Counted from the first letter of the stretch, positions 2,160-58,165 are shown. The stretch: DNA of 64,000 bases from an uncultured Bacteroidia bacterium (GCA_963543925.1 CAUUCP010000002.1:9485-73484), one strand, 5' to 3'. The notes: generated by a model not told the origin, from the sequence alone. Numbers and translations: made by a program.

Positions 2160-2362
2160 GGGGGTATGGGGGAAAGGAGTGCTCTAGGAAGTGTGTAAAC
2201 ACCGTGTGTACCTTCAGCGGGAGTATATAGGGAGTATAGAGGGTATACCCCTAGCATGCCTTGTTTGTGGGATAAGGAATTAAGGAAAATATAAAGCGAG
2301 ATTTCCCCGTTTTTCTCCCCAGTTGCTGTGATACCTAGGCACTTTTTTAGGACAGTATTTTT
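2160..2362 (+). repeat. intergenic repeat element, copy A (3' flank of AAA-ATPase paralog 1)
   Basis: The core CTAGCATGCCTTGTTTGTGGGATAAGGAATTAAGGAAAATATAAAGCGAGATTTCCCCGTTTTTCTCCCCAGTTGCTG...CACTTTTTTAGGACAGTAT recurs at 17920-18158 (same orientation) and 42048-42270 (inverted). A partial copy lies at 48734-48780. Confidence 0.8.
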
Positions 2363-4000
2363 CTACGATCGCTCCTGTGGGGTGAGTACCTCTTCCGCCC
2401 ACTCGCCTACGTTTCTTGTCTTTTCGTCAAAGCTGACGCCCACCAGATGGATGGGACGCTTCGTCTTGCTGAACTTTGCCAAGTAACCGCTCTCCTTGAG
2501 CTGGGTGATAGCCTCCTGTGGCGTACCTGCAGTCATTACCTTGAACTCGAAAAGGTAGACACGTTTGCGCGTTGTAATCACCATATCTACACGCCCCGTC
2601 GCACAAATCACCTCCGTCTGTACCTGCATATCAAGGACATAGAATAGAGCATAGAGAACGGACTGATAGTAATATTCTCGTAGCGGGCGTCCCTCCTCAC
2701 CACTGGGGATATTCCCGTAATAAATCCCAGCGAGTACCTTTTTTACCCATAAGATCACTTCAGATAAATCCCCTGAGAGAAGGGCGCGATTGATTGACCC
2801 TATAGACTTGGAAATCAACGATTCATCCCCTGAGGTGTAAAACGGCAAAAGGCACTTTAAGAAACCTTGTTGTACCTCCTCATTAGGGAAGCCGAGGATG
2901 AAGTGGTCAAGTTGAGGCAGGTACTTCTTAATCGTCAGGTAGCCAGAATGAAACAACAACGGAATCGTATCCTGCGTGCCGTAACGGAAGTTCTGTAAGG
3001 ACGAGCTGTCCATTTCCACGTCATCATCGAGGTCTGGGATAGGGTAAGTATTATGCAGCAGTGCTTTAACGAGGTACTCTGGCGTAGCGCTTTCGAACCA
3101 GTAATAATCGTAAGTACTTGTTACCAAGACCTTAAGAAGACTAAAGGGGTTATAGACATTCTCTCCCTTACGAGAAAAACAATAACCGTCATACTCTTTC
3201 TTGAGTCGTTGACGTGTCGCTTTTACAGTGGTATTTTCTGCTAGGGCTAGTTTCTCTATCTCGGGCATAAAGTAGTCGGTAAGTTCTTGCTCGGTAAAGC
3301 CGCAGATAGCATCGTAATTATCCAAGAGCGAGACATCCATCAGGTTGTTAGCCCCGCTAAAGAGGTTCATCCTACTGAACTTGGTGATGCCCGTCAGGAA
3401 GGCAAAGCGGATGTAGCGGTCGCAGTGCTTGAGTACCTCGTAGAATGCGCGAAGGAGCAAGCGGTTGGCTTCGTTGAGCTCGGGGTCTTCTAGGGTGAGC
3501 AGGAGGGGTTTGTCATACTCGTCGATGAGGATAACGACCTGCTTTCCAGTCTGTTCGTAGATGGTTTCTATGAGGTAAATAAGTCGCTCTTCGGGAGCAT
3601 CCTCATCACTTACGACTTGGTATCTCTTTTCTAGCTTCTCGAGTTGCTTTAAAAGGCGGTTGGGTAATGTTTCTCGGGTTACATAGTCCCTCGCATTCAG
3701 GTCGAAGTAGAGCACGGGACTTGCCTCCCACGGCTCGCGTTGTTGCCTGCAGGCGATTTCCTCCTCGTGGTCTGCGATATAGAGCCCCTCAAAGAGCTCC
3801 TTCCGTCCTTCGAAATAGGCTTGGAGGGTAGACAGGAAGAGGCTCTTTCCAAAACGGTGGGGGCGGCTGAGGAAAAACGACTTAGAGCCGACACTCATAC
3901 ATTTCACTATGTAGTGAGTCTTGTCTACATAGATCATCCGATTCCTTCGGATATCTTCAAAGGTTTGAACCCCCACGGGTAGCAGACGCTGTTCTGTCAT
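2363..4000 (-). CDS. AAA-ATPase-like / PD-(D/E)XK nuclease fusion protein (PF09820+PF08011-type, recalled from memory), paralog 1
   Basis: 545 aa. Walker A-like SRPHRFGKS, Walker B VVILIDEYD, and a C-terminal nuclease motif GRVDMV...LFEFK. The last 330 or more residues are essentially identical to paralogs 2 and 3. Confidence 0.75.
   Translation of the reverse strand: MTEQRLLPVGVQTFEDIRRNRMIYVDKTHYIVKCMSVGSKSFFLSRPHRFGKSLFLSTLQAYFEGRKELFEGLYIADHEEEIACRQQREPWEASPVLYFDLNARDYVTRETLPNRLLKQLEKLEKRYQVVSDEDAPEERLIYLIETIYEQTGKQVVILIDEYDKPLLLTLEDPELNEANRLLLRAFYEVLKHCDRYIRFAFLTGITKFSRMNLFSGANNLMDVSLLDNYDAICGFTEQELTDYFMPEIEKLALAENTTVKATRQRLKKEYDGYCFSRKGENVYNPFSLLKVLVTSTYDYYWFESATPEYLVKALLHNTYPIPDLDDDVEMDSSSLQNFRYGTQDTIPLLFHSGYLTIKKYLPQLDHFILGFPNEEVQQGFLKCLLPFYTSGDESLISKSIGSINRALLSGDLSEVILWVKKVLAGIYYGNIPSGEEGRPLREYYYQSVLYALFYVLDMQVQTEVICATGRVDMVITTRKRVYLFEFKVMTAGTPQEAITQLKESGYLAKFSKTKRPIHLVGVSFDEKTRNVGEWAEEVLTPQERS
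2471..3352. repeat. 882-bp tract identical to 4189-5070 (direct); 2471-3333 identical to 47763-48625 (inverted)
   Basis: Compared base by base by eye. The first mismatch with copy 2 is at 3353 (gccccg vs gctccg). The offset to copy 2 is 1718 bp. Confidence 0.8.
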
Positions 4001-4020
4001 CTCCTTGTTATTGATTTGTA

Positions 4021-4028
4021 CAAAGATA
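4021..4028 (-). promoter_or_regulatory. -7 box TATCTTTG for paralog 1
   Basis: TAnnTTTG match with 20 nt between the box and the ATG at 4000. Confidence 0.6.
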
Positions 4029-4092
4029 GGAAAAAGAACACCTATCTACTGAGGCTAGCGACGCTCGAGGCAGTAAGAAGCGCAGAGAGGGT

Positions 4093-5715
4093 TTACTGAT
4101 TTATGACCTCCTCCGCCCACTCGCCTACGTTCCTCGTCTTCTCGTCAAAGCTGACGCCCACCAGATGCACGGAACGTTTCGTCTTACTGAACTTTGCCAA
4201 GTAACCGCTCTCCTTGAGCTGGGTGATAGCCTCCTGTGGCGTACCTGCAGTCATTACCTTGAACTCGAAAAGGTAGACACGTTTGCGCGTTGTAATCACC
4301 ATATCTACACGCCCCGTCGCACAAATCACCTCCGTCTGTACCTGCATATCAAGGACATAGAATAGAGCATAGAGAACGGACTGATAGTAATATTCTCGTA
4401 GCGGGCGTCCCTCCTCACCACTGGGGATATTCCCGTAATAAATCCCAGCGAGTACCTTTTTTACCCATAAGATCACTTCAGATAAATCCCCTGAGAGAAG
4501 GGCGCGATTGATTGACCCTATAGACTTGGAAATCAACGATTCATCCCCTGAGGTGTAAAACGGCAAAAGGCACTTTAAGAAACCTTGTTGTACCTCCTCA
4601 TTAGGGAAGCCGAGGATGAAGTGGTCAAGTTGAGGCAGGTACTTCTTAATCGTCAGGTAGCCAGAATGAAACAACAACGGAATCGTATCCTGCGTGCCGT
4701 AACGGAAGTTCTGTAAGGACGAGCTGTCCATTTCCACGTCATCATCGAGGTCTGGGATAGGGTAAGTATTATGCAGCAGTGCTTTAACGAGGTACTCTGG
4801 CGTAGCGCTTTCGAACCAGTAATAATCGTAAGTACTTGTTACCAAGACCTTAAGAAGACTAAAGGGGTTATAGACATTCTCTCCCTTACGAGAAAAACAA
4901 TAACCGTCATACTCTTTCTTGAGTCGTTGACGTGTCGCTTTTACAGTGGTATTTTCTGCTAGGGCTAGTTTCTCTATCTCGGGCATAAAGTAGTCGGTAA
5001 GTTCTTGCTCGGTAAAGCCGCAGATAGCATCGTAATTATCCAAGAGCGAGACATCCATCAGGTTGTTAGCTCCGCTAAAGAGGTTCATCCTACTGAACTG
5101 GGTGATGCCCGTTAGGAAGGCAAAGCGGATATAGCGGTCGCAGTTCTTGAGTATCTCGTAGAAGGCGCGGAGGAGCAAGCGGTTGGCTTCGTTCAACTTT
5201 GGGTCTTCTAGGGTGAGTAGGAGCGGCTTGTCATACTCGTCTATTAGGATAACGATCTGTTTACCTGTATTTTCGTAGACACTTTCGATCACATTATTGA
5301 ATCGTCCAGGGAAGGTTCTTGCGACGCCCTCACTACCGTAACGTCTTTCCATCGCAGTGAGCTGCCGATCTAGCAAATTCTCCAAGGCAGTATTATCTGT
5401 AAACCGCTCAGCGTTCATATTGAAGTAGAGCACGGGACTCGCCTCCCACGGCTCGCGTTGTTGCCAGCGGGCGATCTCTTCTTCGCGCTCTGCGATGTAG
5501 AGCCCCTCAAAGAGCTCCTTTTTTCCTTCAAAGTAAGCTTGTAGCGTCGAGAGGAAGAGGCTCTTACCGAAACGGTGGGGGCGGCTAAGGAAGAAGCACT
5601 CACCCAGAAGCAAAAGCTTCTCTATGTATTGAGTTTTATCTACGTAGACACTCCCTTTATTCCGTAGCTTCTCGAATGTCTGTCCAGTGATGGGTAAGTT
5701 GCGCGGTGGGGTCAT
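4093..5715 (-). CDS. AAA-ATPase-like / PD-(D/E)XK nuclease fusion protein, paralog 2
   Basis: Same architecture as paralog 1. I prefer the ATG at 5715 (MTPPRNLPITG...) over the track's TTG at 5742, because the -7 box at 5740-5747 overlaps that TTG and paralog 1 starts at the equivalent Met. Confidence 0.75.
   Translation of the reverse strand: MTPPRNLPITGQTFEKLRNKGSVYVDKTQYIEKLLLLGECFFLSRPHRFGKSLFLSTLQAYFEGKKELFEGLYIAEREEEIARWQQREPWEASPVLYFNMNAERFTDNTALENLLDRQLTAMERRYGSEGVARTFPGRFNNVIESVYENTGKQIVILIDEYDKPLLLTLEDPKLNEANRLLLRAFYEILKNCDRYIRFAFLTGITQFSRMNLFSGANNLMDVSLLDNYDAICGFTEQELTDYFMPEIEKLALAENTTVKATRQRLKKEYDGYCFSRKGENVYNPFSLLKVLVTSTYDYYWFESATPEYLVKALLHNTYPIPDLDDDVEMDSSSLQNFRYGTQDTIPLLFHSGYLTIKKYLPQLDHFILGFPNEEVQQGFLKCLLPFYTSGDESLISKSIGSINRALLSGDLSEVILWVKKVLAGIYYGNIPSGEEGRPLREYYYQSVLYALFYVLDMQVQTEVICATGRVDMVITTRKRVYLFEFKVMTAGTPQEAITQLKESGYLAKFSKTKRSVHLVGVSFDEKTRNVGEWAEEVINQ
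4189..5070. repeat. 882-bp tract identical to 2471-3352
   Basis: See the 2471-3352 entry. Confidence 0.8.
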
Positions 5716-5739
5716 CTTTGCTTCCTCAATTTGTTTGTA

Positions 5740-5747
5740 CAAAGATA
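5740..5747 (-). promoter_or_regulatory. -7 box TATCTTTG for paralog 2
   Basis: TAnnTTTG match with 24 nt between the box and the ATG at 5715. Confidence 0.6.
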
Positions 5748-17687: not shown

Positions 17688-17919
17688 AAAAAAAATAGAA
17701 ACATAAGTGTAACTTTTTGCCCACTTCTTCATCGTATCGGGTTATTCTCCTAGATACTGTCCTACACCTACACAGTGTGTAAAGAAGCTACCTATCTACT
17801 TGTCTACGACTTTTTTTAATGCGCATAGTGTAGACCACTACTTTAGGAAATCCTAAGGCGCTATTTTTATACGATGAGCTAAATAATAGAGTAATTAAAT
17901 AAAGAAATGCGTATAGAAT

Positions 17920-18158
17920 ATGGGCTATTTTGGAGTAGGTAATTTTACCTAATTTAGTCGGTGTAGAGTACGTGTAGAGCACGTGTAGAGTACGTGTAGC
18001 ATTGGTGTACTCCTAGCATGCCTTGTTTTGGGATAGGGAATTGAGGAAAATGTAAAGCGACATTTCCCTGTTTTTCTCCCCAGTTGCTGCGACATTTACA
18101 CACTCTCCTAGGAGAGTATCAAAGATGCGCACATTTTTTACGGACAGTATCTGTATTT
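17920..18158 (+). repeat. intergenic repeat element, copy B (solo, at the truncation junction of susC locus 2)
   Basis: Aligns with copy A and with inverted copy C across ATGGGCTATTTTGG..GGTAATTTTACCTAATTTAG, the 11-mer array, the CTAGCATGCC...CAGTTGCTG core and CACATTTTTTACGGACAGTAT. Confidence 0.8.
17961..18004 (+). repeat. tandem 11-bp repeats GTGTAGAG(T/C)AC x4 (a fifth unit is degenerate)
   Basis: Sequence is gtgtagagtac gtgtagagcac gtgtagagtac gtgtagcattg. The equivalent array in copy C is at 42187-42230. Copy A has a degenerate version (ggagtatatag ggagtatagag) at about 2220-2241. Confidence 0.85.
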
Positions 18159-42047: not shown

Positions 42048-42270
42048 CCTAAAAAAGTGTGTCCCACATCACAGCAACGGGGGAGAAAAATGAGGAAGAG
42101 AAATGGGGAAGAAAAACGTGGAAATACCGCTTTATGTTTTCCTTAATGCCTTATCCCCAAAAAAGGCACACTAGGAGTACACCAATGCTACACATACTCT
42201 ATACGTGCTCTACACGTACTCTACACGTACTAAATTAGGTAAAATTACCTACCCAAAAAATAGCCCATAT
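42048..42270 (-). repeat. intergenic repeat element, copy C (solo, inverted, between susC locus 3 and ftsY)
   Basis: Its reverse complement aligns with copy B across the whole element, including the 11-mer array (42187-42230). Confidence 0.8.
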
Positions 42271-42510
42271 TTACATATACTCCCTTATTTCTACGTAGCA
42301 TTATTTATATTACCGTATAGAAAAGAGGCTTTAGAAATTCGTAAAGTAGGCGGATGGAAAGGGGGATAAGAAACGGAAGGAGACGGAGAAATGGGCAGCT
42401 TTTACAGACACTACATTAAAATCCCATAAGGTGGATAGTCTGATGACTTTTTCTGTTGGCTATAACTTTTCTTGGTATCTTTACGCCAAAATTTAATAAC
42501 TATTCGGTCA

Positions 42511-45671: not shown

Positions 45672-46961
45672 ATGAGTGCAGAGGAGGCGGTACAGGTAGT
45701 CCGCTCTGGAGATCATATTCATCTGGGGAGCGTAGCTACAACCCCCACCATTCTAGTAAATGCGCTGTGTGCGTATGGTAAATCGGCAGGGCTAAAGGAT
45801 GTACATATCCACCATTTGCACACCGAGCCTCCAGCCCCGTATAGCGAGCCCGAGTATGAAGGGATCTTTCAACTGGACTCCTTTTTCGTAGGAAAGAACG
45901 TGCGTAAGATAACCCAAGCTGGCTATGCGGACTATATTCCGATCTTCTTGGGTGAGACGCAAAAACTGTATAGAGAGGGGGTGTTGCCCGTTGACGTGGC
46001 CATGGTACAGGTTTCCCCTCCCGATGCTTTTGGGTATGTATCGTTAGGTAGCTCGGTGGATGCGACCTTGGCAGCAATAGAGAAGGCACGCTGTGTGATC
46101 GCTGTGGTAAACAAGCACGTACCGCGCACGTTGGGCGATGCGATGATCCGCATAGAGCAGATAGATCGTTGGGTAGCGCATGATGAACCCCTTGAAGAGG
46201 TGCACTTCGGTACTCCGAATGCAGAAGAGCAGACGATTGGTAGGAACTGTGCAGAGCTGATCGAGGACGGGGCGACGCTTCAGATGGGGATCGGGAACAT
46301 CCCCAATGCCGTGCTCTCGTGCCTAACGAATCACAAAGACCTTGGTATTCACACCGAGATGTTTGCAGACGGGGTACTCCCTCTGGTAGCGAGTGGTGTG
46401 ATCAATGGTTCGAAAAAGGTGACTGACCCCTATCGCATCGTCTCGACATTCCTAATGGGTTCGCAGAAGGTTTATGACTTCATAGACAATAACCCTGGAG
46501 TATTGATGATGGATGTGGGCTATACGAACGATCCATTTATCATAGCGCAGAACCCTCGGATGACGGCCATCAACTCTGCTCTCGAGGTAGATATCACAGG
46601 GCAAGTTTGTGCCGACTCTATCGGGACAAAGTTCTACTCGGGTGTAGGAGGACAAGTGGACTTCCTATACGGCGCATCTCGTTCAAAGGGTGGGAAACCA
46701 ATCATCGCGATGCCAGCACGCACAGCCAAAGGGGAGAGCAAGCTCGTTCCAACTCTGAAGGTCGGAGCAGGTGTGGTAACGACGCGTTCGCATATGCACT
46801 GGCTCGTAACGGAGTTCGGAGCTGTAAATCTATACGGTAAGACCTTGCAGGAGCGTGCTCGTCTGATCACTTCGGTAGCCCATCCAGATGATCGCGAGAT
46901 GCTAGACCGCGCCGCCTTTGAGCGTTATGGCAGTCACTTCCATTTCTTGGGTGGAAAGTAA
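45672..46961 (+). CDS. acetyl-CoA hydrolase/transferase family protein, 4-hydroxybutyrate CoA-transferase-like
   Basis: About 430 aa. Motifs GIGNIPNAV, HTEMF and SGVGGQVDF. I prefer the start at MSAEEAVQVV. Confidence 0.75.
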   Translation: MSAEEAVQVVRSGDHIHLGSVATTPTILVNALCAYGKSAGLKDVHIHHLHTEPPAPYSEPEYEGIFQLDSFFVGKNVRKITQAGYADYIPIFLGETQKLYREGVLPVDVAMVQVSPPDAFGYVSLGSSVDATLAAIEKARCVIAVVNKHVPRTLGDAMIRIEQIDRWVAHDEPLEEVHFGTPNAEEQTIGRNCAELIEDGATLQMGIGNIPNAVLSCLTNHKDLGIHTEMFADGVLPLVASGVINGSKKVTDPYRIVSTFLMGSQKVYDFIDNNPGVLMMDVGYTNDPFIIAQNPRMTAINSALEVDITGQVCADSIGTKFYSGVGGQVDFLYGASRSKGGKPIIAMPARTAKGESKLVPTLKVGAGVVTTRSHMHWLVTEFGAVNLYGKTLQERARLITSVAHPDDREMLDRAAFERYGSHFHFLGGK

Positions 46962-47066
46962 GGGGAATTATACCCATTGTAAGAATCAGCTACGGCGCGT
47001 CATCTCCCCTGTGAGGTGGCGCGCCGTATAGATGTAGAGGAGTCTATTGGACGGTACCCTTTTTCC

Positions 47067-47074
47067 TACCTTTG
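47067..47074 (+). promoter_or_regulatory. -7 box TACCTTTG for paralog 3
   Basis: TAnnTTTG match with 24 nt between the box and the ATG at 47099. The geometry matches paralog 2. Confidence 0.6.
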
Positions 47075-47098
47075 TACAAACGAATGGAGGAAGCAAAG

Positions 47099-48733
47099 AT
47101 GACCGAACAGCGCAACTTACCCATCACTGGACAGACATTCGAGAAGCTACGGAATAAAGGGAGTGTCTACGTAGATAAAACTCAATACATAGAGAAGCTT
47201 TTACTTCTGGGTGAGTGCTTCTTTCTCAGCCGTCCCCACCGTTTCGGTAAGAGCCTCTTCCTATCTACCCTCCAATCCTATTTCGAAGGACGAAAAGAGC
47301 TCTTCGAGGGGCTCTACATCGCAGACCACGAAGAGGAGATCGCCCGCAAGCAACGACGCGAGCCGTGGGAGGCAAGTCCCGTGCTCTACTTCGACCTGAA
47401 TGCGAGGGACTATGTAACCCGAGAAACATTACCCAACCGCCTTTTAAAGCAACTCGAGAAGCTAGAAAAGAGATACCAAGTCGTAAGTGATGAGGATGCT
47501 CCCGAAGAGCGACTTATTTACCTCATAGAAACCATCTACGAACAGACTGGAAAGCAGGTCGTTATCCTCATAGACGAGTATGACAAGCCCCTCCTATTCA
47601 CCCTAGAAGACCCAGAGTTGAACGAAGCCAACCGCTTGCTCCTTCGCGCATTCTATGAGGTACTTAAGCATTGCGATCGCTACATCCGCTTTGCATTCCT
47701 GACGGGCATCACCAAGTTCAGTAGGATGAACCTCTTTAGCGGAGCTAACAACTTGAAGGATATCTCGCTCTTGGATAATTACGATGCTATCTGCGGCTTT
47801 ACCGAGCAAGAACTTACCGACTACTTTATGCCCGAGATAGAGAAACTAGCCCTAGCAGAAAATACCACTGTAAAAGCGACACGTCAACGACTCAAGAAAG
47901 AGTATGACGGTTATTGTTTTTCTCGTAAGGGAGAGAATGTCTATAACCCCTTTAGTCTTCTTAAGGTCTTGGTAACAAGTACTTACGATTATTACTGGTT
48001 CGAAAGCGCTACGCCAGAGTACCTCGTTAAAGCACTGCTGCATAATACTTACCCTATCCCAGACCTCGATGATGACGTGGAAATGGACAGCTCGTCCTTA
48101 CAGAACTTCCGTTACGGCACGCAGGATACGATTCCGTTGTTGTTTCATTCTGGCTACCTGACGATTAAGAAGTACCTGCCTCAACTTGACCACTTCATCC
48201 TCGGCTTCCCTAATGAGGAGGTACAACAAGGTTTCTTAAAGTGCCTTTTGCCGTTTTACACCTCAGGGGATGAATCGTTGATTTCCAAGTCTATAGGGTC
48301 AATCAATCGCGCCCTTCTCTCAGGGGATTTATCTGAAGTGATCTTATGGGTAAAAAAGGTACTCGCTGGGATTTATTACGGGAATATCCCCAGTGGTGAG
48401 GAGGGACGCCCGCTACGAGAATATTACTATCAGTCCGTTCTCTATGCTCTATTCTATGTCCTTGATATGCAGGTACAGACGGAGGTGATTTGTGCGACGG
48501 GGCGTGTAGATATGGTGATTACAACGCGCAAACGTGTCTACCTTTTCGAGTTCAAGGTAATGACTGCAGGTACGCCACAGGAGGCTATCACCCAGCTCAA
48601 GGAGAGCGGTTACTTGGCAAAGTTCAGTAAGACGAAACGTTCCATCCATCTGGTGGGCGTCAGCTTTGACGAGAAAACGAGGAACGTAGGCGAGTGGGCG
48701 GAAGAGGTACTCACGCCACAGGAGCTGTTGTAG
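47099..48733 (+). CDS. AAA-ATPase-like / PD-(D/E)XK nuclease fusion protein, paralog 3 (mosaic)
   Basis: Start at MTEQRNLPITG. The first ~40 residues (about 50 in the track ORF numbering) resemble paralog 2, residues from about 55 to 220 (about 60-230 in track numbering) resemble paralog 1, and the C-terminal 290 or more are identical to both. Confidence 0.75.
   Translation: MTEQRNLPITGQTFEKLRNKGSVYVDKTQYIEKLLLLGECFFLSRPHRFGKSLFLSTLQSYFEGRKELFEGLYIADHEEEIARKQRREPWEASPVLYFDLNARDYVTRETLPNRLLKQLEKLEKRYQVVSDEDAPEERLIYLIETIYEQTGKQVVILIDEYDKPLLFTLEDPELNEANRLLLRAFYEVLKHCDRYIRFAFLTGITKFSRMNLFSGANNLKDISLLDNYDAICGFTEQELTDYFMPEIEKLALAENTTVKATRQRLKKEYDGYCFSRKGENVYNPFSLLKVLVTSTYDYYWFESATPEYLVKALLHNTYPIPDLDDDVEMDSSSLQNFRYGTQDTIPLLFHSGYLTIKKYLPQLDHFILGFPNEEVQQGFLKCLLPFYTSGDESLISKSIGSINRALLSGDLSEVILWVKKVLAGIYYGNIPSGEEGRPLREYYYQSVLYALFYVLDMQVQTEVICATGRVDMVITTRKRVYLFEFKVMTAGTPQEAITQLKESGYLAKFSKTKRSIHLVGVSFDEKTRNVGEWAEEVLTPQELL
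47763..48625. repeat. 863-bp tract identical to the reverse complement of 2471-3333 (and of 4189-5051)
   Basis: Compared by eye. The flanking mismatch is at 47762 (gatAtc vs gatGtc). Confidence 0.8.
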
Positions 48734-48945
48734 AGAAAGTGTCCGTAAAAAGTGTGTAAACTTGGGAGAGAAAACCTCCCCGTTGGGGAACAACAACTTT
48801 TTTTCAGAGTAGGTACTAGCGTTTTTGACTTGATAGAAATCCCATGAAAGAGAGTCGGTACGGAAGGAATTGTTGTCGAAAAAAAAATACCTACTATTTA
48901 GGGTAACTACGTAGTAATACCTACTATATAATGAAAAAGATCGCC

Positions 48946-48953
48946 TACTTTTG
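48946..48953 (+). promoter_or_regulatory. -7 box TACTTTTG
   Basis: 25 nt lie between the box and the ATG at 48979. Confidence 0.55.
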
Positions 48954-48978
48954 GGCTTGTAATTAACAACGTTATACG

Positions 48979-50250
48979 ATGAAGAAGTTTTTATTACTCG
49001 GCACGGCAGTGCTTTTGCTTGCCTCGGCAACGTTTGCACGGGACTGGTATGTGTCTGCAACCACTGGTGGAAACCGAAATGATGGGGCGAAGGGGACTCC
49101 ACTCAAGGATTTACAGAAGGCTATCGACCAAGCTACGGCAGGGGACAAAATCTATATCGCTGCAGGAAACTACACGGGAAAGCTCGATGTCGGGTATATT
49201 TCCCTAGACAAGCCGCTAGAACTCTACGGTGGCTATACGACCGACTTTAGCGCACGCGACGTCTTAGCTAATCGCACGACAATCTATACCGAGCCCAAGC
49301 ACAACGGTACAGCAGGGAGCAAGGCGCTGATTCACTTAGAAGACAAGATCACTCCTGGCAAGACCGTAATCGACGGTTTTCTCTTCGACCGTGGAGCAGC
49401 AAACAATTACAAAGACGTTTCTACCAGCGAGGTGAAGGGGCTCTTATCTGGGATAATGGTTCCCGACCAAAAGCAGACGGAGAAGCCCGCAATCTATGGT
49501 CAGACGAAGGGTGAGCTAATCATCCGGAACTGTGTATTTAACAATATGACGAACTATGCCCTCCAGTTCAGCATTGACAATGGTGCTCCTGTAAAGATAG
49601 AAAACAACGTTTTTACCGCAGTGCGTTATGCAGCGATTCAGCTCACTGGTCGTAAGAATGGCGTATGTGCTCCAGTGGAGATCTGCAACAACACGATCCT
49701 TTTTGTCTGGACACGTACCAAGACTTTCGAAGACATGGGGTATGGAATCCGCTCATTCTCGGGTACAAGCCTTAATATTCACGACAATGTACTTGGTTTG
49801 ACCTACAACGGAGCTATCGACCTCGGGCACAGCACAGGCTGGCGTTGGGGCGAAAAAGTACGTGCTGACAAGAACGCCTTCTTTATGAACAAGAAGGGGG
49901 ATATCAACCTTCCCTCGGGTGGCGGCATGTTCCTACAACGCAGAGCCGAGGATTTTGAGGATGTAGACCTCCTCGAAACGGCCGATGGGAACTACGAGCT
50001 CAAGGATGTACAAGGGTTGAAGGCTGCTATTGACCCTGCTTATCTGAATGGCTTCTTGTCAGCAACCTATTCGGAAAAGACCGACTATGATCCGAATAGT
50101 AACGTAAACCAATTCCGTTCCGCGATGGGTATGAACCAAGTAGGGAGCATCCAATCAAAGGTTACGATGTTCATGAACCGTTACCCCATTGAGAGCTCGA
50201 TCAAGTGCTTTGGTGCAGTAAAAGGGGTTGGTGCACAGCTTCCTCGCTAG
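48979..50250 (+). CDS. secreted right-handed beta-helix (pectate-lyase-fold/DUF1565-like) protein
   Basis: The signal peptide is MKKFLLLGTAVLLLASATFA. The N-terminus RDWYVSATTGGNRNDGAKGTPLKDLQKAIDQATAGDKIYIAAGNY is typical of beta-helix proteins. Confidence 0.6.
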   Translation: MKKFLLLGTAVLLLASATFARDWYVSATTGGNRNDGAKGTPLKDLQKAIDQATAGDKIYIAAGNYTGKLDVGYISLDKPLELYGGYTTDFSARDVLANRTTIYTEPKHNGTAGSKALIHLEDKITPGKTVIDGFLFDRGAANNYKDVSTSEVKGLLSGIMVPDQKQTEKPAIYGQTKGELIIRNCVFNNMTNYALQFSIDNGAPVKIENNVFTAVRYAAIQLTGRKNGVCAPVEICNNTILFVWTRTKTFEDMGYGIRSFSGTSLNIHDNVLGLTYNGAIDLGHSTGWRWGEKVRADKNAFFMNKKGDINLPSGGGMFLQRRAEDFEDVDLLETADGNYELKDVQGLKAAIDPAYLNGFLSATYSEKTDYDPNSNVNQFRSAMGMNQVGSIQSKVTMFMNRYPIESSIKCFGAVKGVGAQLPR

Positions 50251-54521: not shown

Positions 54522-56288
54522 CTATTTCTGTATCCAGATATCCCCCTCGACTTCTACATCCTGAAATACTCCATTTGGGAACTTCACCTTTATCTTCACC
54601 CTAAGGTGCTTAGTTTCAATTCCTGCAGAGAACTCGCCGACGGCCTCCTTAAACTTCTCGCGATCTGTGACTATGAGCTCGCCCAATTTCCTCTCCGCAT
54701 GCGCTGTTTCCACATTAGAAGACAAGCTCACTTGAAGGAAATCTGCCGCCGCGCCTACCACTTCACATTCAATATCTGACTGAGACGCCAATGCCCCAAA
54801 ACTCAAATGTGGTGTGATTAATCTTTCAGAGTCTGGAGAGAGCTCTGGTTCGATGAGTAAATCAAAGCTATTACTTTCAACCGTCCCGACCCCAAGCCCC
54901 AATTTCAAACTCAATTGATCTTGCGAGAGCATCTTAAGATTTTCTGGGATCGGATACTCAATCACTACTGGCGCAATATCCTTTCCTACCGCCGTAATAC
55001 GGAGCTTACCCTTGGGGAAGACAAAACTTGACGTAAGTTTTAAAGTCGGTTTCAAAGCTACAGCCTTGGTGGGGTCAACAGTTGATCCCCAAACAAGGGG
55101 ATCTGTCACCTGAAGATAATCCGACAACTTACGCGAATCCGTGGATTCATTGAGAATTTCAATCTTGGAAATTTTCAAGACCTCCTTTCCGCTGGAGATT
55201 ACTGGGTAACGCCAACGCATCAGATTTGTAAACCCGAACTCACCTACAAGATCCCCACCTTTCGGATAAAACGAATTCATCCAAGGCCACGAAAGAGCAT
55301 ATTCTCCTGCGCGTTGTATGGGTCTTGGCTTTACCACTACATCCTCGGGTTTGTGTAACGTCTCGATAGCTCCTTCCTTCGTGATATTCGCTACGACCTT
55401 CTCTGGCTCGGTACGATCTCGGAATTGGAAGGTACTCTCCACCTCGCACTTATCGATGGTAAAGTAAGTCTCCTTTTCTCCGACTTGAAAAAGCTTGTGC
55501 TGTGGAAGTGTTGACGGCTCTTCCCCTCGGAATTTGTTACGGGTCATGACCGCAAACCCGCCACGTGGGCGACGCGTCGTCTCCCCTTCAGGATCGATAA
55601 AAACGTTGACATTCCCACCGCCTATCGTAAAGCGATCGGTAAGTTGGTAAGAGGGTTCTTCGGTACGCATTGAACGACGGAAAGAGCGTACCGCAAAACC
55701 ACCACGCGGGCGACGCGTCTCCTCGGTCACGGGGACATTGATCGTTACCGCATCTTCATAAACCGAAAAGAGGGGTGCACCGTCGCTATTTTGCACCTGA
55801 AAGATGGATTCTCCAGCTTCCTTTCCCTTTTTCGTTCCCTTGATCAAAGAGACAGAATTCGCATAAAGCGCATAGGGAACCGCCTGCATCGGGACAGGAT
55901 CGCCCAGAGAAACAAACGTTCCATTGGCTGCGATATCGACTTCGGCAGCAACACGAAGTCCTTTTTCCCATGGCACAGTCTCCATGCTACCTTGCTGCAC
56001 GCTCCCCTGCCCAGCGCCAACCGTCACGTTCACGAGCCCAGCCTTAGTTGTCTTAGCTGAAATTTGCTCGGCATAGAGCACCTGCCCTGCAAGATCTTGA
56101 AGCTTTACCAAGAGCTTCACTGTTTTTTCTGCAACAGGCTTCCCCTCTTGATAGATCAAGGCTGTGTAGTTGAATGCCGTCGGTAACGTAGCTGCAGAGA
56201 GCTGATCGTCCACCACATCCCCTGCTTCCCCCTGTGCGTGGAGTAGGAAAGGAGCAAATAGCGTAAAAAGTAAGAATAGATACTTCAT
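54522..56288 (-). CDS. secreted hypothetical protein, tandem paralog A
   Basis: Start at MKYLFLLFTLFAPFLLHAQ (signal peptide), supported by a -7 box 24 nt upstream. The N-terminal 340 aa or so are about 90+ percent identical to paralog B, while the C-terminal 250 aa or so are divergent. Confidence 0.7.
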   Translation of the reverse strand: MKYLFLLFTLFAPFLLHAQGEAGDVVDDQLSAATLPTAFNYTALIYQEGKPVAEKTVKLLVKLQDLAGQVLYAEQISAKTTKAGLVNVTVGAGQGSVQQGSMETVPWEKGLRVAAEVDIAANGTFVSLGDPVPMQAVPYALYANSVSLIKGTKKGKEAGESIFQVQNSDGAPLFSVYEDAVTINVPVTEETRRPRGGFAVRSFRRSMRTEEPSYQLTDRFTIGGGNVNVFIDPEGETTRRPRGGFAVMTRNKFRGEEPSTLPQHKLFQVGEKETYFTIDKCEVESTFQFRDRTEPEKVVANITKEGAIETLHKPEDVVVKPRPIQRAGEYALSWPWMNSFYPKGGDLVGEFGFTNLMRWRYPVISSGKEVLKISKIEILNESTDSRKLSDYLQVTDPLVWGSTVDPTKAVALKPTLKLTSSFVFPKGKLRITAVGKDIAPVVIEYPIPENLKMLSQDQLSLKLGLGVGTVESNSFDLLIEPELSPDSERLITPHLSFGALASQSDIECEVVGAAADFLQVSLSSNVETAHAERKLGELIVTDREKFKEAVGEFSAGIETKHLRVKIKVKFPNGVFQDVEVEGDIWIQK

Positions 56289-56312
56289 CGTTGTTAGTTC
56301 TTTTTGTTCCCA

Positions 56313-56320
56313 CAAATGTA
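56313..56320 (-). promoter_or_regulatory. -7 box TACATTTG for paralog A
   Basis: TAnnTTTG match 24 nt upstream of the ATG at 56288. Paralog B has TATCTTCG (one mismatch) at 58192-58199 in the same geometry. Confidence 0.55.
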
Positions 56321-56371
56321 CAACAATCTCACAGACATTCTCACCTGCCATTGACGAGCCCAAAACGTCGC

Positions 56372-58165
56372 CTAGGGTTTGAAACGTATCGTTTTATTGA
56401 CTATAACGGGGGGATAAATGTCTCGAGGGAATTTCATTTTTATCTTAACTCTCAAAAGACGTTCGGTAGCTCCTGGTCTTGGTGCTCCTAACACTTCTTG
56501 AAGCTTTGTAACATCGGTGACTTGTAGCGTCATAAACCTATTAGAGAGGCGATCCTTTTCTTGCACCAATTCAAGCTTTAAGAAATTGTCATACCCATCA
56601 AGAAGCGAATAGCCGATATGGAGATTGCTAATTACATCAAGAAAGTTGGCGCCATCGGTAATTCGCATATCTCTAGGATTCGGCAATAGGAAATTGATCA
56701 TCTGTCCTTGGGAGACATCGTATATCCGATCTTTTTCACTTTCATGGAGAAAGAGTTCCAAATTATCGGCACTCAACATTTTCATATTATCAGGAACAGA
56801 GAAGATAATACTATCCAAAGAGGTAGCGAGTTTGGGGCTAGAATAGAAGATACAAATCTTTCCTTTCGGGAAGACAAAATCAGGTGTCAAGCAGAATGTA
56901 GAATCCAAGACTACTCCCATAACATCGTGGACTTCATACCGTTCGTCGGACTTATATAACATATTTCTGAAATGATGCACCTTGATATAATCGGAAAGTC
57001 TCCTTGTATCCCCTTCATTGTTTATGATTTCCATCCTCTGAATCTGCATTGTATCCCTTCCCTTTGTAACCAGAGGGACACGCCAACGGATCAGATTCGT
57101 GAAACCAAATTGTCCCTCCACAGGGAACTTATAAGCCTTCATATAAAGGTGCTCTATCGGCCATGGCCATTGGAGACTGTACTCTCCGACCCGTTGTACA
57201 GGTCTTGGCTTTACTACCACATCTTCTGGTTTGTGCAGTGTCTCGATGGTTCCTTCCTTTGTAATGTTAGCTACAACTTTTTCTGGCTCAGCACGGTCTC
57301 GGAATTGGAAGGTACTCCCCACCTCGCACTTGTCGATAGTAAAATAGGTTTCTTTTTCTCCGACTTGAAAAAGCTTGTGCTGTGGAAGCGTCGAGGGCTC
57401 TTCCTCGCGGAAATGGTTACGCGTCATGACCGCAAAACCTCCACGTGGGCGACGCGTCTCCCCTTCAGGATCGATAAAGACGTTGACATTCCCACCGCCT
57501 ATCGTAAAGCGATCTGTAAGTTGGTAGCCAGATTCCTCTGCACGCATTGAACGACGGAAAGAGCGTACCGCAAACCCTCCACGTGGGCGACGCGTCTCCT
57601 CGGTCACTGGGACATTGATCGTTACCGCATCTTCATAAACCGAAAAGAGGGGGGCACCCTCGCTATTTTGCACCTGAAAGATCGACTCGCCAGCTTCCTT
57701 TCCCTTTTTCGTTCCCTTGACTAAAGAAACGGTATTGGCATAAAGAGCGTAGGGCACGGCTTGCATCAGGACAGGAGACCCCAACGAAACAAAGCTCCCA
57801 CTCCCTTCGATATCCACTTCGGCAGCAACACGAAGACCTTTTTCCCATGGCACAGCCTCCATACTTCCTTGCTGCACGCTCCCCTGCCCGGCGCCCACCG
57901 TTACGTTCACAAGCCCAGCCTTGGTCGTCTTGGCAGAGATTTGTTCGGAGTAAAGTACCTGCCCTGCTGGGTCTTGAAGCTTTACCAAGAGCTTCACTGT
58001 CTTTTCTGCAACGGGTTTTCCTTCTTGATAGATCAAGGCTGTGTAGTTGAATGCTGTCGGTAGCGTAGCTGCGGAGAGCTGATCATCCACCACATCCCCA
58101 CCTGTCTCCTGCGCATGGAGTAAACAAGAAACCGATAGCATCAGGAGCAAAAATAGATACTTCAT
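56372..58165 (-). CDS. secreted hypothetical protein, tandem paralog B
   Basis: 597 aa with signal peptide MKYLFLLLMLSVSCLLHAQ. See paralog A. Confidence 0.7.
   Translation of the reverse strand: MKYLFLLLMLSVSCLLHAQETGGDVVDDQLSAATLPTAFNYTALIYQEGKPVAEKTVKLLVKLQDPAGQVLYSEQISAKTTKAGLVNVTVGAGQGSVQQGSMEAVPWEKGLRVAAEVDIEGSGSFVSLGSPVLMQAVPYALYANTVSLVKGTKKGKEAGESIFQVQNSEGAPLFSVYEDAVTINVPVTEETRRPRGGFAVRSFRRSMRAEESGYQLTDRFTIGGGNVNVFIDPEGETRRPRGGFAVMTRNHFREEEPSTLPQHKLFQVGEKETYFTIDKCEVGSTFQFRDRAEPEKVVANITKEGTIETLHKPEDVVVKPRPVQRVGEYSLQWPWPIEHLYMKAYKFPVEGQFGFTNLIRWRVPLVTKGRDTMQIQRMEIINNEGDTRRLSDYIKVHHFRNMLYKSDERYEVHDVMGVVLDSTFCLTPDFVFPKGKICIFYSSPKLATSLDSIIFSVPDNMKMLSADNLELFLHESEKDRIYDVSQGQMINFLLPNPRDMRITDGANFLDVISNLHIGYSLLDGYDNFLKLELVQEKDRLSNRFMTLQVTDVTKLQEVLGAPRPGATERLLRVKIKMKFPRDIYPPVIVNKTIRFKP

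Follow-up and report, generated by a model that had tools for sequence, protein, structure and literature searches.

Why are three genes on one bacterial contig identical, base for base, over at least 865 nucleotides (nt), and why do the parts that precede this tract agree in one pair of genes at their very start and in a different pair a little further in? The question is raised by a 64,000-nt stretch of DNA from an uncultured Bacteroidia bacterium (positions 9485-73484 of contig C2, CAUUCP010000002.1, in assembly GCA_963543925.1), which was analysed as a whole and is called the window below. Its own genome, G000, is assembled to 2.19 Mb in 72 contigs with 49.6% G+C, and the closest public relatives are metagenome-assembled genomes of uncultured Bacteroidia. 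The window contains three complete genes of the DUF1703 family, P1 and P2 on the same strand with P2 directly upstream of P1, and P3 some 40 kb away, and a fourth member of the same subgroup, P4, lies on contig C4. P1-P4 are intact, separately promoted members of the family, and the pattern of identity and difference among them is very probably the outcome of recent gene conversion within the genome.

Genes, promoters and mosaic structure

Each of the four genes can be described as a head, a cassette and a body, with the alleles of the first two designated by letters. The genes and their promoter boxes are as follows.

2363-4000, minus strand: P1, DUF1703 gene of 545 amino acids (aa) with head allele a, cassette allele alpha and the shared body (open reading frame; PF09820 at aa 8-214, PF08011 at aa 441-534; AlphaFold2 (AF2) model with a predicted local distance difference test score, pLDDT, of 84.4)
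4093-5715, minus strand: P2, DUF1703 gene of 540 aa with head allele b, cassette allele beta and the shared body, in tandem with P1 (open reading frame, Pfam, alignment)
47099-48733, plus strand: P3, DUF1703 gene of 544 aa with head allele b, cassette allele alpha and the shared body, inverted relative to P1 and P2 (open reading frame, Pfam, alignment)
G000 C4:16618-18243, minus strand: P4, fourth subgroup member, with head allele a, cassette allele gamma and the shared body (alignment)
4021-4028, minus strand: P1 promoter box TATCTTTG, Bacteroidetes -7 type (position before the ATG)
5740-5747, minus strand: P2 promoter box TATCTTTG (position before the ATG)
47067-47074, plus strand: P3 promoter box TACCTTTG (position before the ATG)

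The promoter boxes have the form TA(T/C)CTTTG and end 20-24 nt ahead of the ATG in P1, P2 and P3, one per gene. The listed reading frame of P2 extends to a TTG at 5742 and that of P3 begins at a TTG at 47072, and the ATG is taken as the start of both genes because both TTG codons fall inside the promoter box. The copies lose their similarity 29-46 nt ahead of the ATG and no more than about 50 nt past the genes, and every copy therefore brings with it just a minimal promoter. Scans for sigma-70 promoters and terminators gave nothing of consequence above shuffled sequences, an Rfam scan in and beside the genes found no RNA family, and neither P1 nor P3 had an exact match when looked up in public assemblies. 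Pfam searches match PF09820 (AAA-ATPase_like) in P1, P2 and P3 over the full profile (positions 1-201 of 201, with scores of 205-213 bits where 26.1 is required; E 1e-60 to 5e-63) and PF08011 (PDDEXK_9) at the C-terminus of each (69-70 bits against the Pfam gathering cut-off of 25.5; E about 1e-19). No NCBIfam model matched the genes.

String comparison shows that 2469-3352 equals 4187-5070 (884 nt, P1 and P2), that 2469-3333 is the reverse complement of 47763-48627 (865 nt, P1 and P3), and that 4171-5051 is the reverse complement of 47763-48643 (881 nt, P2 and P3); P4 has 760-801 nt of the same exact tract. The tract encodes aa 217-510 of P1, which comprise the helical middle domain and most of the nuclease domain, and it makes up 53-54% of the gene, ending about 100 nt ahead of the stop codon with the remainder 97-99% identical. 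The tracts and the variable modules of the window are located as follows.

2469-3352, minus strand: P1 exact tract, 884 nt in common with P2, of which 2469-3333 is also in P3 (string identity, four-way alignment)
4171-5070, minus strand: P2 exact tract, with 4187-5070 equal to P1 and 4171-5051 to the reverse complement of P3 (string identity)
47763-48643, plus strand: P3 exact tract (string identity)
3875-4000, minus strand: P1 head module, aa 1-42, allele a (98% nt identity to P4, 90-95% to the C70 and C56 copies, 59-61% to P2 and P3)
5593-5715, minus strand: P2 head module, allele b (97% nt identity to P3)
47099-47221, plus strand: P3 head module, allele b (sequence comparison)
3551-3703, minus strand: P1 cassette, aa 100-150, allele alpha, predicted to form a hairpin of two helices after strand beta2 and before the Walker B strand (100% identity to P3, 42-48% to P2 and P4; AF2 model)
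5269-5421, minus strand: P2 cassette, allele beta (95% nt identity to the cassette of C70:25)
47393-47545, plus strand: P3 cassette, allele alpha (sequence comparison)

Several aspects of the four-way alignment stand out. First, the head (nt 1-126) pairs P1 with P4 and P2 with P3, with 53-65% identity between the two types; the head of P3 is 97% identical to that of P2 and only 61% to that of P1. Second, the cassette (nt about 300-445) gives a different grouping, in which P1 and P3 are 100% identical and P2 and P4 are 38-48% identical to P1 and 55-77% to each other; over nt 298-450, P3 matches P1 completely and P2 at 42%. Third, all four genes are identical over nt 668-1427. One body thus carries the combinations a+alpha (P1), b+beta (P2), b+alpha (P3) and a+gamma (P4), with two head and three cassette alleles, and the partitions of P1-P4 given by head, cassette and body are mutually incompatible. 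Our own implementation of the pairwise homoplasy index (PHI) statistic gives an observed value of 0.150 for P1-P4 against 0.525 +/- 0.016 in permutations, and none of 2000 permutations was as low. Finally, since the flanking regions are 3-10% diverged, 865 nt with no difference is not a matter of chance (probability at most 4e-12).

Much of this bears on an earlier interpretation made from the DNA alone, referred to here as the sequence-only reading. Its three paralogs were recovered with the same positions and strands, each with its own promoter box 20-24 nt before the ATG, and its description of P3 as the N-terminus of P2 joined to the middle of P1 agrees with the head and cassette identities. 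The proposed ATPase plus PD-(D/E)XK architecture was likewise confirmed by the Pfam search, with the catalytic residues intact. Its identical tracts are indeed exact, over 865-884 nt, with coordinates that were off by 2 nt at some ends; the statement that they span the 3' two-thirds of the genes overestimates an exact tract that covers little more than half and stops short of the end.

Paralogs in the genome and in sister species

The subgroup belongs to a much larger set of paralogs. There are 27 PF09820 matches in G000, occupying about 2% of the 2.19 Mb; 20 span the full length, six are truncated at contig ends, one has no nuclease domain, and none has internal stops. P4 and 23 further matches were not part of the sequence-only reading. 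The copy without a nuclease domain (C21:8460-9719, minus strand; 420 aa) is contig-internal, stands in tandem with a full copy and is the sole visibly decayed member.

Exact tracts are not confined to P1-P4. Other pairs in G000 share 1353, 996, 712, 658, 434 and 401 nt, at varying positions in the gene, and the PHI-type test on larger groups of the family gave no permutation as low as the observed value in 500 for either a 13-gene or a 7-gene group. The P1-P4 body is just 57-68% identical in nucleotides to every other G000 copy, and about a dozen copies agree at 75-94% in the segments encoding the Walker A and B motifs. The cassette of P2 is 95% identical to that of C70:25, although the bodies of the two are 58% identical, and, judged by such comparisons, head and cassette behave as discrete alleles that are common to several subfamilies. 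Amino-acid diversity is highest at aa 106-150, which is the cassette, and at aa 316-345 and 391-420. The ratio of nonsynonymous to synonymous differences (pN/pS) is 0.23-0.52 in every segment, a crude estimate in which the synonymous sites are saturated (pS 0.63-0.80) and which is uninformative for the cassette.

The ends of the exact tracts in G000 and in the sister species G008 cluster at nt 118-145 after the head, at the cassette borders (about 270-300 and 430-476), and at 505-690 after Walker B. The conserved motif-coding stretches therefore act as anchors for recombination. Three further peaks in the distribution of tract ends, at nt 1173, 1299 and 1312, arise from alignment gaps relative to P1 and were disregarded as artefacts.

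G008, which was assembled independently, has exact tracts of its own of 995, 868, 710 and 525 nt, and the longest exact match between any G008 and G000 copies is 26 nt. The exact tracts are thus species-specific, and conversion is therefore recent and concerted. In both species there are also pairs with exact tracts in the N-terminal half of the gene. The ongoing gene conversion that the sequence-only reading had deduced is borne out by the patchwork, the incompatible partitions, the PHI-type test and the comparisons with G008 and with contig L113 (described below). Its picture of a variable ATPase head and a homogenised nuclease tail fits the P1-P4 subgroup; across the family it is the body that separates subfamilies and the Walker segments that are well conserved, and as a general design with a constant tail it fails in those other pairs of G000 and the sister species.

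The most direct view of replacement at a fixed position comes from L113, a contig from another sample with a flank about 85-90% identical in nucleotides. It has a DUF1703 gene at the P4 site, beside the same ubiX-like gene, and this gene has kept cassette gamma (91-97% nt identity) but carries head b and a body of the C41/C53 type (87-97%), in contrast to head a and the P1-P3 body in P4. Head and body have therefore been replaced at a fixed locus after the lineages split, which is conversion and not only duplication. In the window the P2-to-P1 junction (4001-4092) consists of a stop codon, about 90 nt with a promoter box, and the ATG of a head-a gene; it is 95% identical to the junction of a tandem pair on C70 (G000 C70:1681-1727), and the same short junction follows the positional orthologue of P4 in L113 (2284-2446). 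It recurs as if tandem pairs are copied or converted as units. At the trmE site of contig L112, which corresponds to the C56:7763 site of G000, the 3' half of the gene and the downstream flank match the C21:6666 locus of G000. This fits copy-to-copy recombination that rearranges the chromosome, and equally a chimeric contig, and we prefer neither.

The positions of the copies also differ between species. P1 and P2 are neighbored by RodA and by a 1911-aa DUF285/Big_2 surface protein gene, P3 by genes for an acetyl-CoA hydrolase and a beta-helix lipoprotein, and P4 by ubiX-like and ribF. The last two abut in G005 and G003 and are neighbors in G005, G003, G008 and G001; in G000 they are separated by P4, a clean insertion of about 1.9 kb. 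The RodA and hydrolase neighborhoods are rearranged in the sister genomes, with a small conserved gene after RodA and yceD-plsX-fabH after the hydrolase, so that the comparison there gives the absence of a DUF1703 gene only, and no insertion boundary. In G002 the hydrolase and lipoprotein genes lie near each other, about 3.2 kb apart, and the outer flanks of P3 are syntenic with that genome. From the presence of empty and occupied sites among sisters it follows that copy positions turn over between species. Two further observations concern the P3 site. In six sister genomes the acetyl-CoA hydrolase gene is followed by the yceD-plsX-fabH block, which in G000 is on C31:16893-19689 with P3 in its place. 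Comparison of window 46961-48979 with G002 (L061) points to one of two things: a rearrangement whose breakpoint holds a DUF1703 gene, or an unresolved assembly join.

This pattern is very probably the product of gene conversion, a non-reciprocal form of homologous recombination, that took place recently among the 27 paralogs of G000. The variable modules are flanked by highly conserved stretches coding for the motifs, in which the exchanges are anchored; a single body allele, comprising the middle domain and the nuclease, now occupies four loci with zero differences over 760-884 nt, and two head and three cassette alleles have been re-dealt among them. Dispersal of copies to new sites also contributes, because some copies sit at sites that are empty in sister species.

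Predicted protein and known systems

The residues expected of an ATPase and a nuclease are retained. R46, P47, R49, F50, G51, K52, D160, E161, Y162 and D163 are invariant in an alignment of 34 diverse sequences, in which S53 is present in at least 90%, and the nuclease residues E442, D472, E485, K487 and Q500 (PD-(D/E)XK motifs I-IV: E, D, ExK, Q) are invariant as well. Every catalytic residue that Knizewski et al. (PMC1913061) named is thereby covered. R46, P47, R49, G51, K52, S53, D160-D163 and the five nuclease residues are kept in 120 of 120 homologues and in all of the genome's own copies that span them. The Walker A motif of the family is atypical, RPHRFGKS (pattern RPxRFGKS), and Walker B is DEYD. 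The AF2 model (predicted template-modelling (TM) score 0.80) has a secondary structure that fits an AAA+ alpha/beta domain, a lid, a helical middle domain and a nuclease. The best Foldseek match in the PDB is Orc1/Cdc6 2qby_A (E 7e-5), a weak match at TM 0.22-0.30; subunits of the origin recognition complex are matched too, matches to Apaf-1 and the wheat resistosome are also weak (E 4e-4 to 8e-3, TM 0.17-0.32), and HincII is a fold match for the C-terminal nuclease part. A Tn7-like TnsA/TnsC logic, suggested by a weak TnsC fold match, was dropped, as there is no transposase nearby.

In the model the cassette forms a hairpin of two helices (111-126 and 136-151), preceded by strand 96-100 and followed by the Walker B strand (155-160); going by AAA+ topology, this would be the site of the DNA-contacting initiator-specific motif in initiator-clade AAA+ proteins. 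The protein is predicted to consist of an N-terminal cap, an Orc1/Cdc6- or STAND-like (signal transduction ATPase with numerous domains) AAA+ switch ATPase, a helical middle domain and a C-terminal PD-(D/E)XK nuclease, and could be an ATP-gated oligomerising nuclease of the conflict or defence type. The variable surfaces, namely the cap and the two-helix cassette, would set recognition, and recognition would license DNA cleavage.

The DUF1703 family and its architecture were defined in 2007 (Knizewski et al., PMC1913061). P1-P3 have the same two Pfam domains, Walker A and B, nuclease motifs and four-domain layout, and are members of that family with no difference. It has about 16,600 representatives at 50% identity in the public library (E up to 0.001), and it is one of the larger protein families without a tested function; as the sequence-only reading stated, no established function is known for it. 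The nearest precedent is Cardinium hertigii cCpun, in which a 25-copy DUF1703 expansion shows recombination among paralogs by RDP4 and PHI and reticulate evolution (Siozios et al. 2019, PMC6387759). As in cCpun, there are about 25 paralogs in a small, host-associated Bacteroidota genome, and the copies break the assembly. In contrast, the cCpun copies show no homogenisation, with a mean aa identity of 39%, whereas G000 and its sister species have species-specific exact tracts of up to 1353 nt; and unlike Cardinium, an intracellular symbiont, the host here is of a gut Bacteroidia lineage, with proteins that have no signal peptide-like start. A 2025 paper describes up-regulated DUF1703 fragments in another Cardinium (PMC12039267).

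Other likenesses are more distant. McrBC, Avs and bacterial proteins resembling nucleotide-binding leucine-rich-repeat receptors (NLR-like) with PD-(D/E)XK or Mrr effectors may share a logic with P1-P3, to judge from the modelled fold, in that a nucleotide-gated, oligomerising ATPase is coupled to a restriction-fold nuclease. Unlike the Avs and NLR-like STAND proteins, P1-P3 have no repeat-type sensors (TPR, WD40, LRR; Pfam finds only PF09820 and PF08011), the nuclease is C-terminal, and no Avs model in PADLOC matches. RdrA of the RADAR system is said to match PF09820 (PMC10952713); a PADLOC search found no RdrA match at E up to 0.1, and no deaminase or RdrB-like gene is present among the 20 neighbors scanned. 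The homogenisation of tuf and rRNA genes and conversion at pilE/pilS, vlsE and msp2 likewise involve non-reciprocal recombination between tandem and dispersed paralogs, exact tracts, and cassettes re-dealt between conserved anchors. Here, unlike pilE/pilS-type systems, all copies are complete promoted genes rather than silent donors to a single expression site, and the product is cytoplasmic and not a surface antigen.

Both the family and the recombination of its paralogs are thus already published, which the sequence-only reading had overlooked, and P1-P4 add a clear further example without being a system of a new kind; the locus leaves the current picture of the family unchanged. What it adds is a matter of degree: conversion that is recent, homogenising and species-specific, a positional orthologue that reveals module replacement at a fixed locus, and a natural, near-isogenic series of four genes with an identical body, two heads and three cassettes, in which the part that determines specificity is directly testable. 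The family also makes up about 2% of this 2.2-Mb gut genome.

Weighing the explanations

Taken as a whole, recent conversion among paralogs encoding a switch ATPase fused to a nuclease is in our view the probable explanation, notwithstanding a number of points that weigh against its account of the sequences or against its functional half. On the sequence side, G000 is a metagenome-assembled genome built from a k=55 de Bruijn graph, with contig ends that overlap by 52-55 nt, no Ns and 72 contigs; the main caveat is that a tract of 760-884 nt exceeds most short-read inserts, such that the identity could be partly a collapsed consensus of near-identical copies, with the linkage across the tract given by the assembly. 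At its strongest this would make the exact tracts the collapsed consensus of similar repeats traversed several times, and some of the mosaics chimeric joins. Of the 144 contig ends, 47 match stop-to-stop open reading frames that hold family genes; only about ten of these lie within or beside a family gene, about 20 are one 52-54-nt dispersed repeat at the C51 end, and others are in the non-genic 5' extension of the C3:31215 open reading frame. The head, cassette and Walker-segment junctions, however, are all bracketed by diagnostic sites less than 55 nt apart, and the junction k-mers must therefore exist in the reads. The tract ends are moreover staggered between pairs (5' at 627, 649 or 668; 3' at 1427, 1532 or 1548), gene order on the outer sides of P3 and P4 is conserved in sister genomes, and the pattern recurs in G008, whose assembly is independent, as well as on contigs obtained from other samples. 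The most that a collapse could do is conceal a few single-nucleotide differences within the tract; it would not generate the pattern, and we regard an assembly artefact as highly improbable.

A different difficulty is that the sister genomes examined have no DUF1703 gene at either of the sites that P1/P2 and P3 occupy, the one following RodA and the other bounded by the genes for the acetyl-CoA hydrolase and the beta-helix lipoprotein, and the identity of the body may in part reflect recent transfer of copies to new sites rather than conversion of old copies. Such duplicative dispersal could be the main cause of the shared body if one gene was copied very recently to three sites and its 5' modules were later overwritten by conversion. 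The clean P4 insertion agrees with this, and the abrupt loss of similarity shortly upstream of the ATG is what a small, gene-sized unit would leave. We nonetheless think it unlikely, as in the related species represented by L113 the P4 site already holds a DUF1703 gene with the same cassette and another body, which indicates that the body was replaced and not newly inserted; the copies have no transposase, terminal repeats or target duplications, and dispersal would still need conversion to produce the 5' mosaics. It is less likely again that DUF1703 is a selfish gene family that spreads and homogenises for its own benefit and gives the host no service, in the manner of free-standing homing-endonuclease genes. 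The family does encode a nuclease, varies from 0 to 44 copies among genomes of one genus, occupies species-specific insertion sites, has expanded in unrelated symbionts (PMC6387759), and includes fragments that have been termed "MITE candidates" (PMC12039267; miniature inverted-repeat transposable elements); it is present on 67 of 72,556 plasmids and, among phage records, on 32 unannotated virome contigs only. Against this, just one of the 27 copies is visibly decayed and every segment is under purifying selection, the subfamilies are old (50-65% nt identity) with no recent burst, element ends are absent, and the family is absent from cultured phage genomes.

The functional half of the explanation fares less well, and a defence-type role for the P1-P4 proteins, akin to the sensing or defence role put forward in the sequence-only reading, is possible but somewhat doubtful. 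We know of no published phage-defence test for the DUF1703 family. The focal copies lie outside defence islands, among housekeeping and surface-protein genes; of the checks that the sequence-only reading proposed, the genome-wide count gives 27 members, and co-localisation with defence islands does not hold for these copies. PADLOC found no defence-system match, only weak ones to Cas4, PDC-M45C and PDC-S41 (E at least 9e-4); no solved structure in the PDB was matched meaningfully by sequence or profile; the Foldseek TM-scores are low, at 0.2-0.3, as expected with a multi-domain query; and the per-segment pN/pS, with its saturated synonymous sites, shows no positive selection. That the cassette corresponds to the initiator-specific motif is an analogy drawn from AAA+ topology. 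Among about 20 loci, three touch parts of type I restriction-modification systems (HsdS fragments, HsdR) and one a YhcG nuclease, with the others beside housekeeping or secreted-protein genes; these neighbors are a weak link to defence and one that the focal copies do not share. The sites concerned are C41:6224-6829, C3:75457-76020, C3:33386-36379 and C3:78490-79536, with two short HsdS-like open reading frames, HsdR, and YhcG/DUF1016.

A more speculative proposal, and one we hold to be rather improbable, is that the family constitutes a recombination-fed recognition repertoire, in which one ATP-gated nuclease body would be supplied with alternative N-terminal caps and, at the presumed site of the initiator-specific motif, alternative two-helix cassettes through Walker-anchored conversion. 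If so, each genome would hold dozens of specificities, re-dealt within the lifetime of a species, and P1-P4 would represent four of the six possible combinations of two heads and three cassettes on an identical body. In a bolder form, the family's own nuclease may make the breaks that start both conversion between paralogs and insertion of copies at new sites.

The region contains repeats of other kinds. An insertion sequence, a MITE or a transposon-like unit was considered for the DUF1703 copies and rejected, as no shared ends, terminal repeats, target duplications or transposase are present at them. About 20 contig ends (for example those of C1, C2, C8, C13, C14, C20 and C34) carry the same 52-54 nt as the C51 end as k=55 graph overlaps, and the assembly is broken up by this dispersed repeat and by the DUF1703 copies. 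Another repeat, non-coding and about 330 nt long, is present in roughly 60 copies in the genome, including window positions 2265-2358, 18026-18119, about 17810-18092 and about 42105-42396, and is also found at L112:4077-4407; a short, hairpin-bearing piece (ACTCTCCGAAAAGAGTG-like) is located directly downstream of several DUF1703 genes, namely P1, P3, C53, C41 and C3:76137. Finally, window 54522-58165 (minus strand) encodes tandem lipoprotein-like paralogs of 613 and 597 aa, in which the N-terminal ~330 aa are about 90% identical and the C-terminal halves are strongly diverged.

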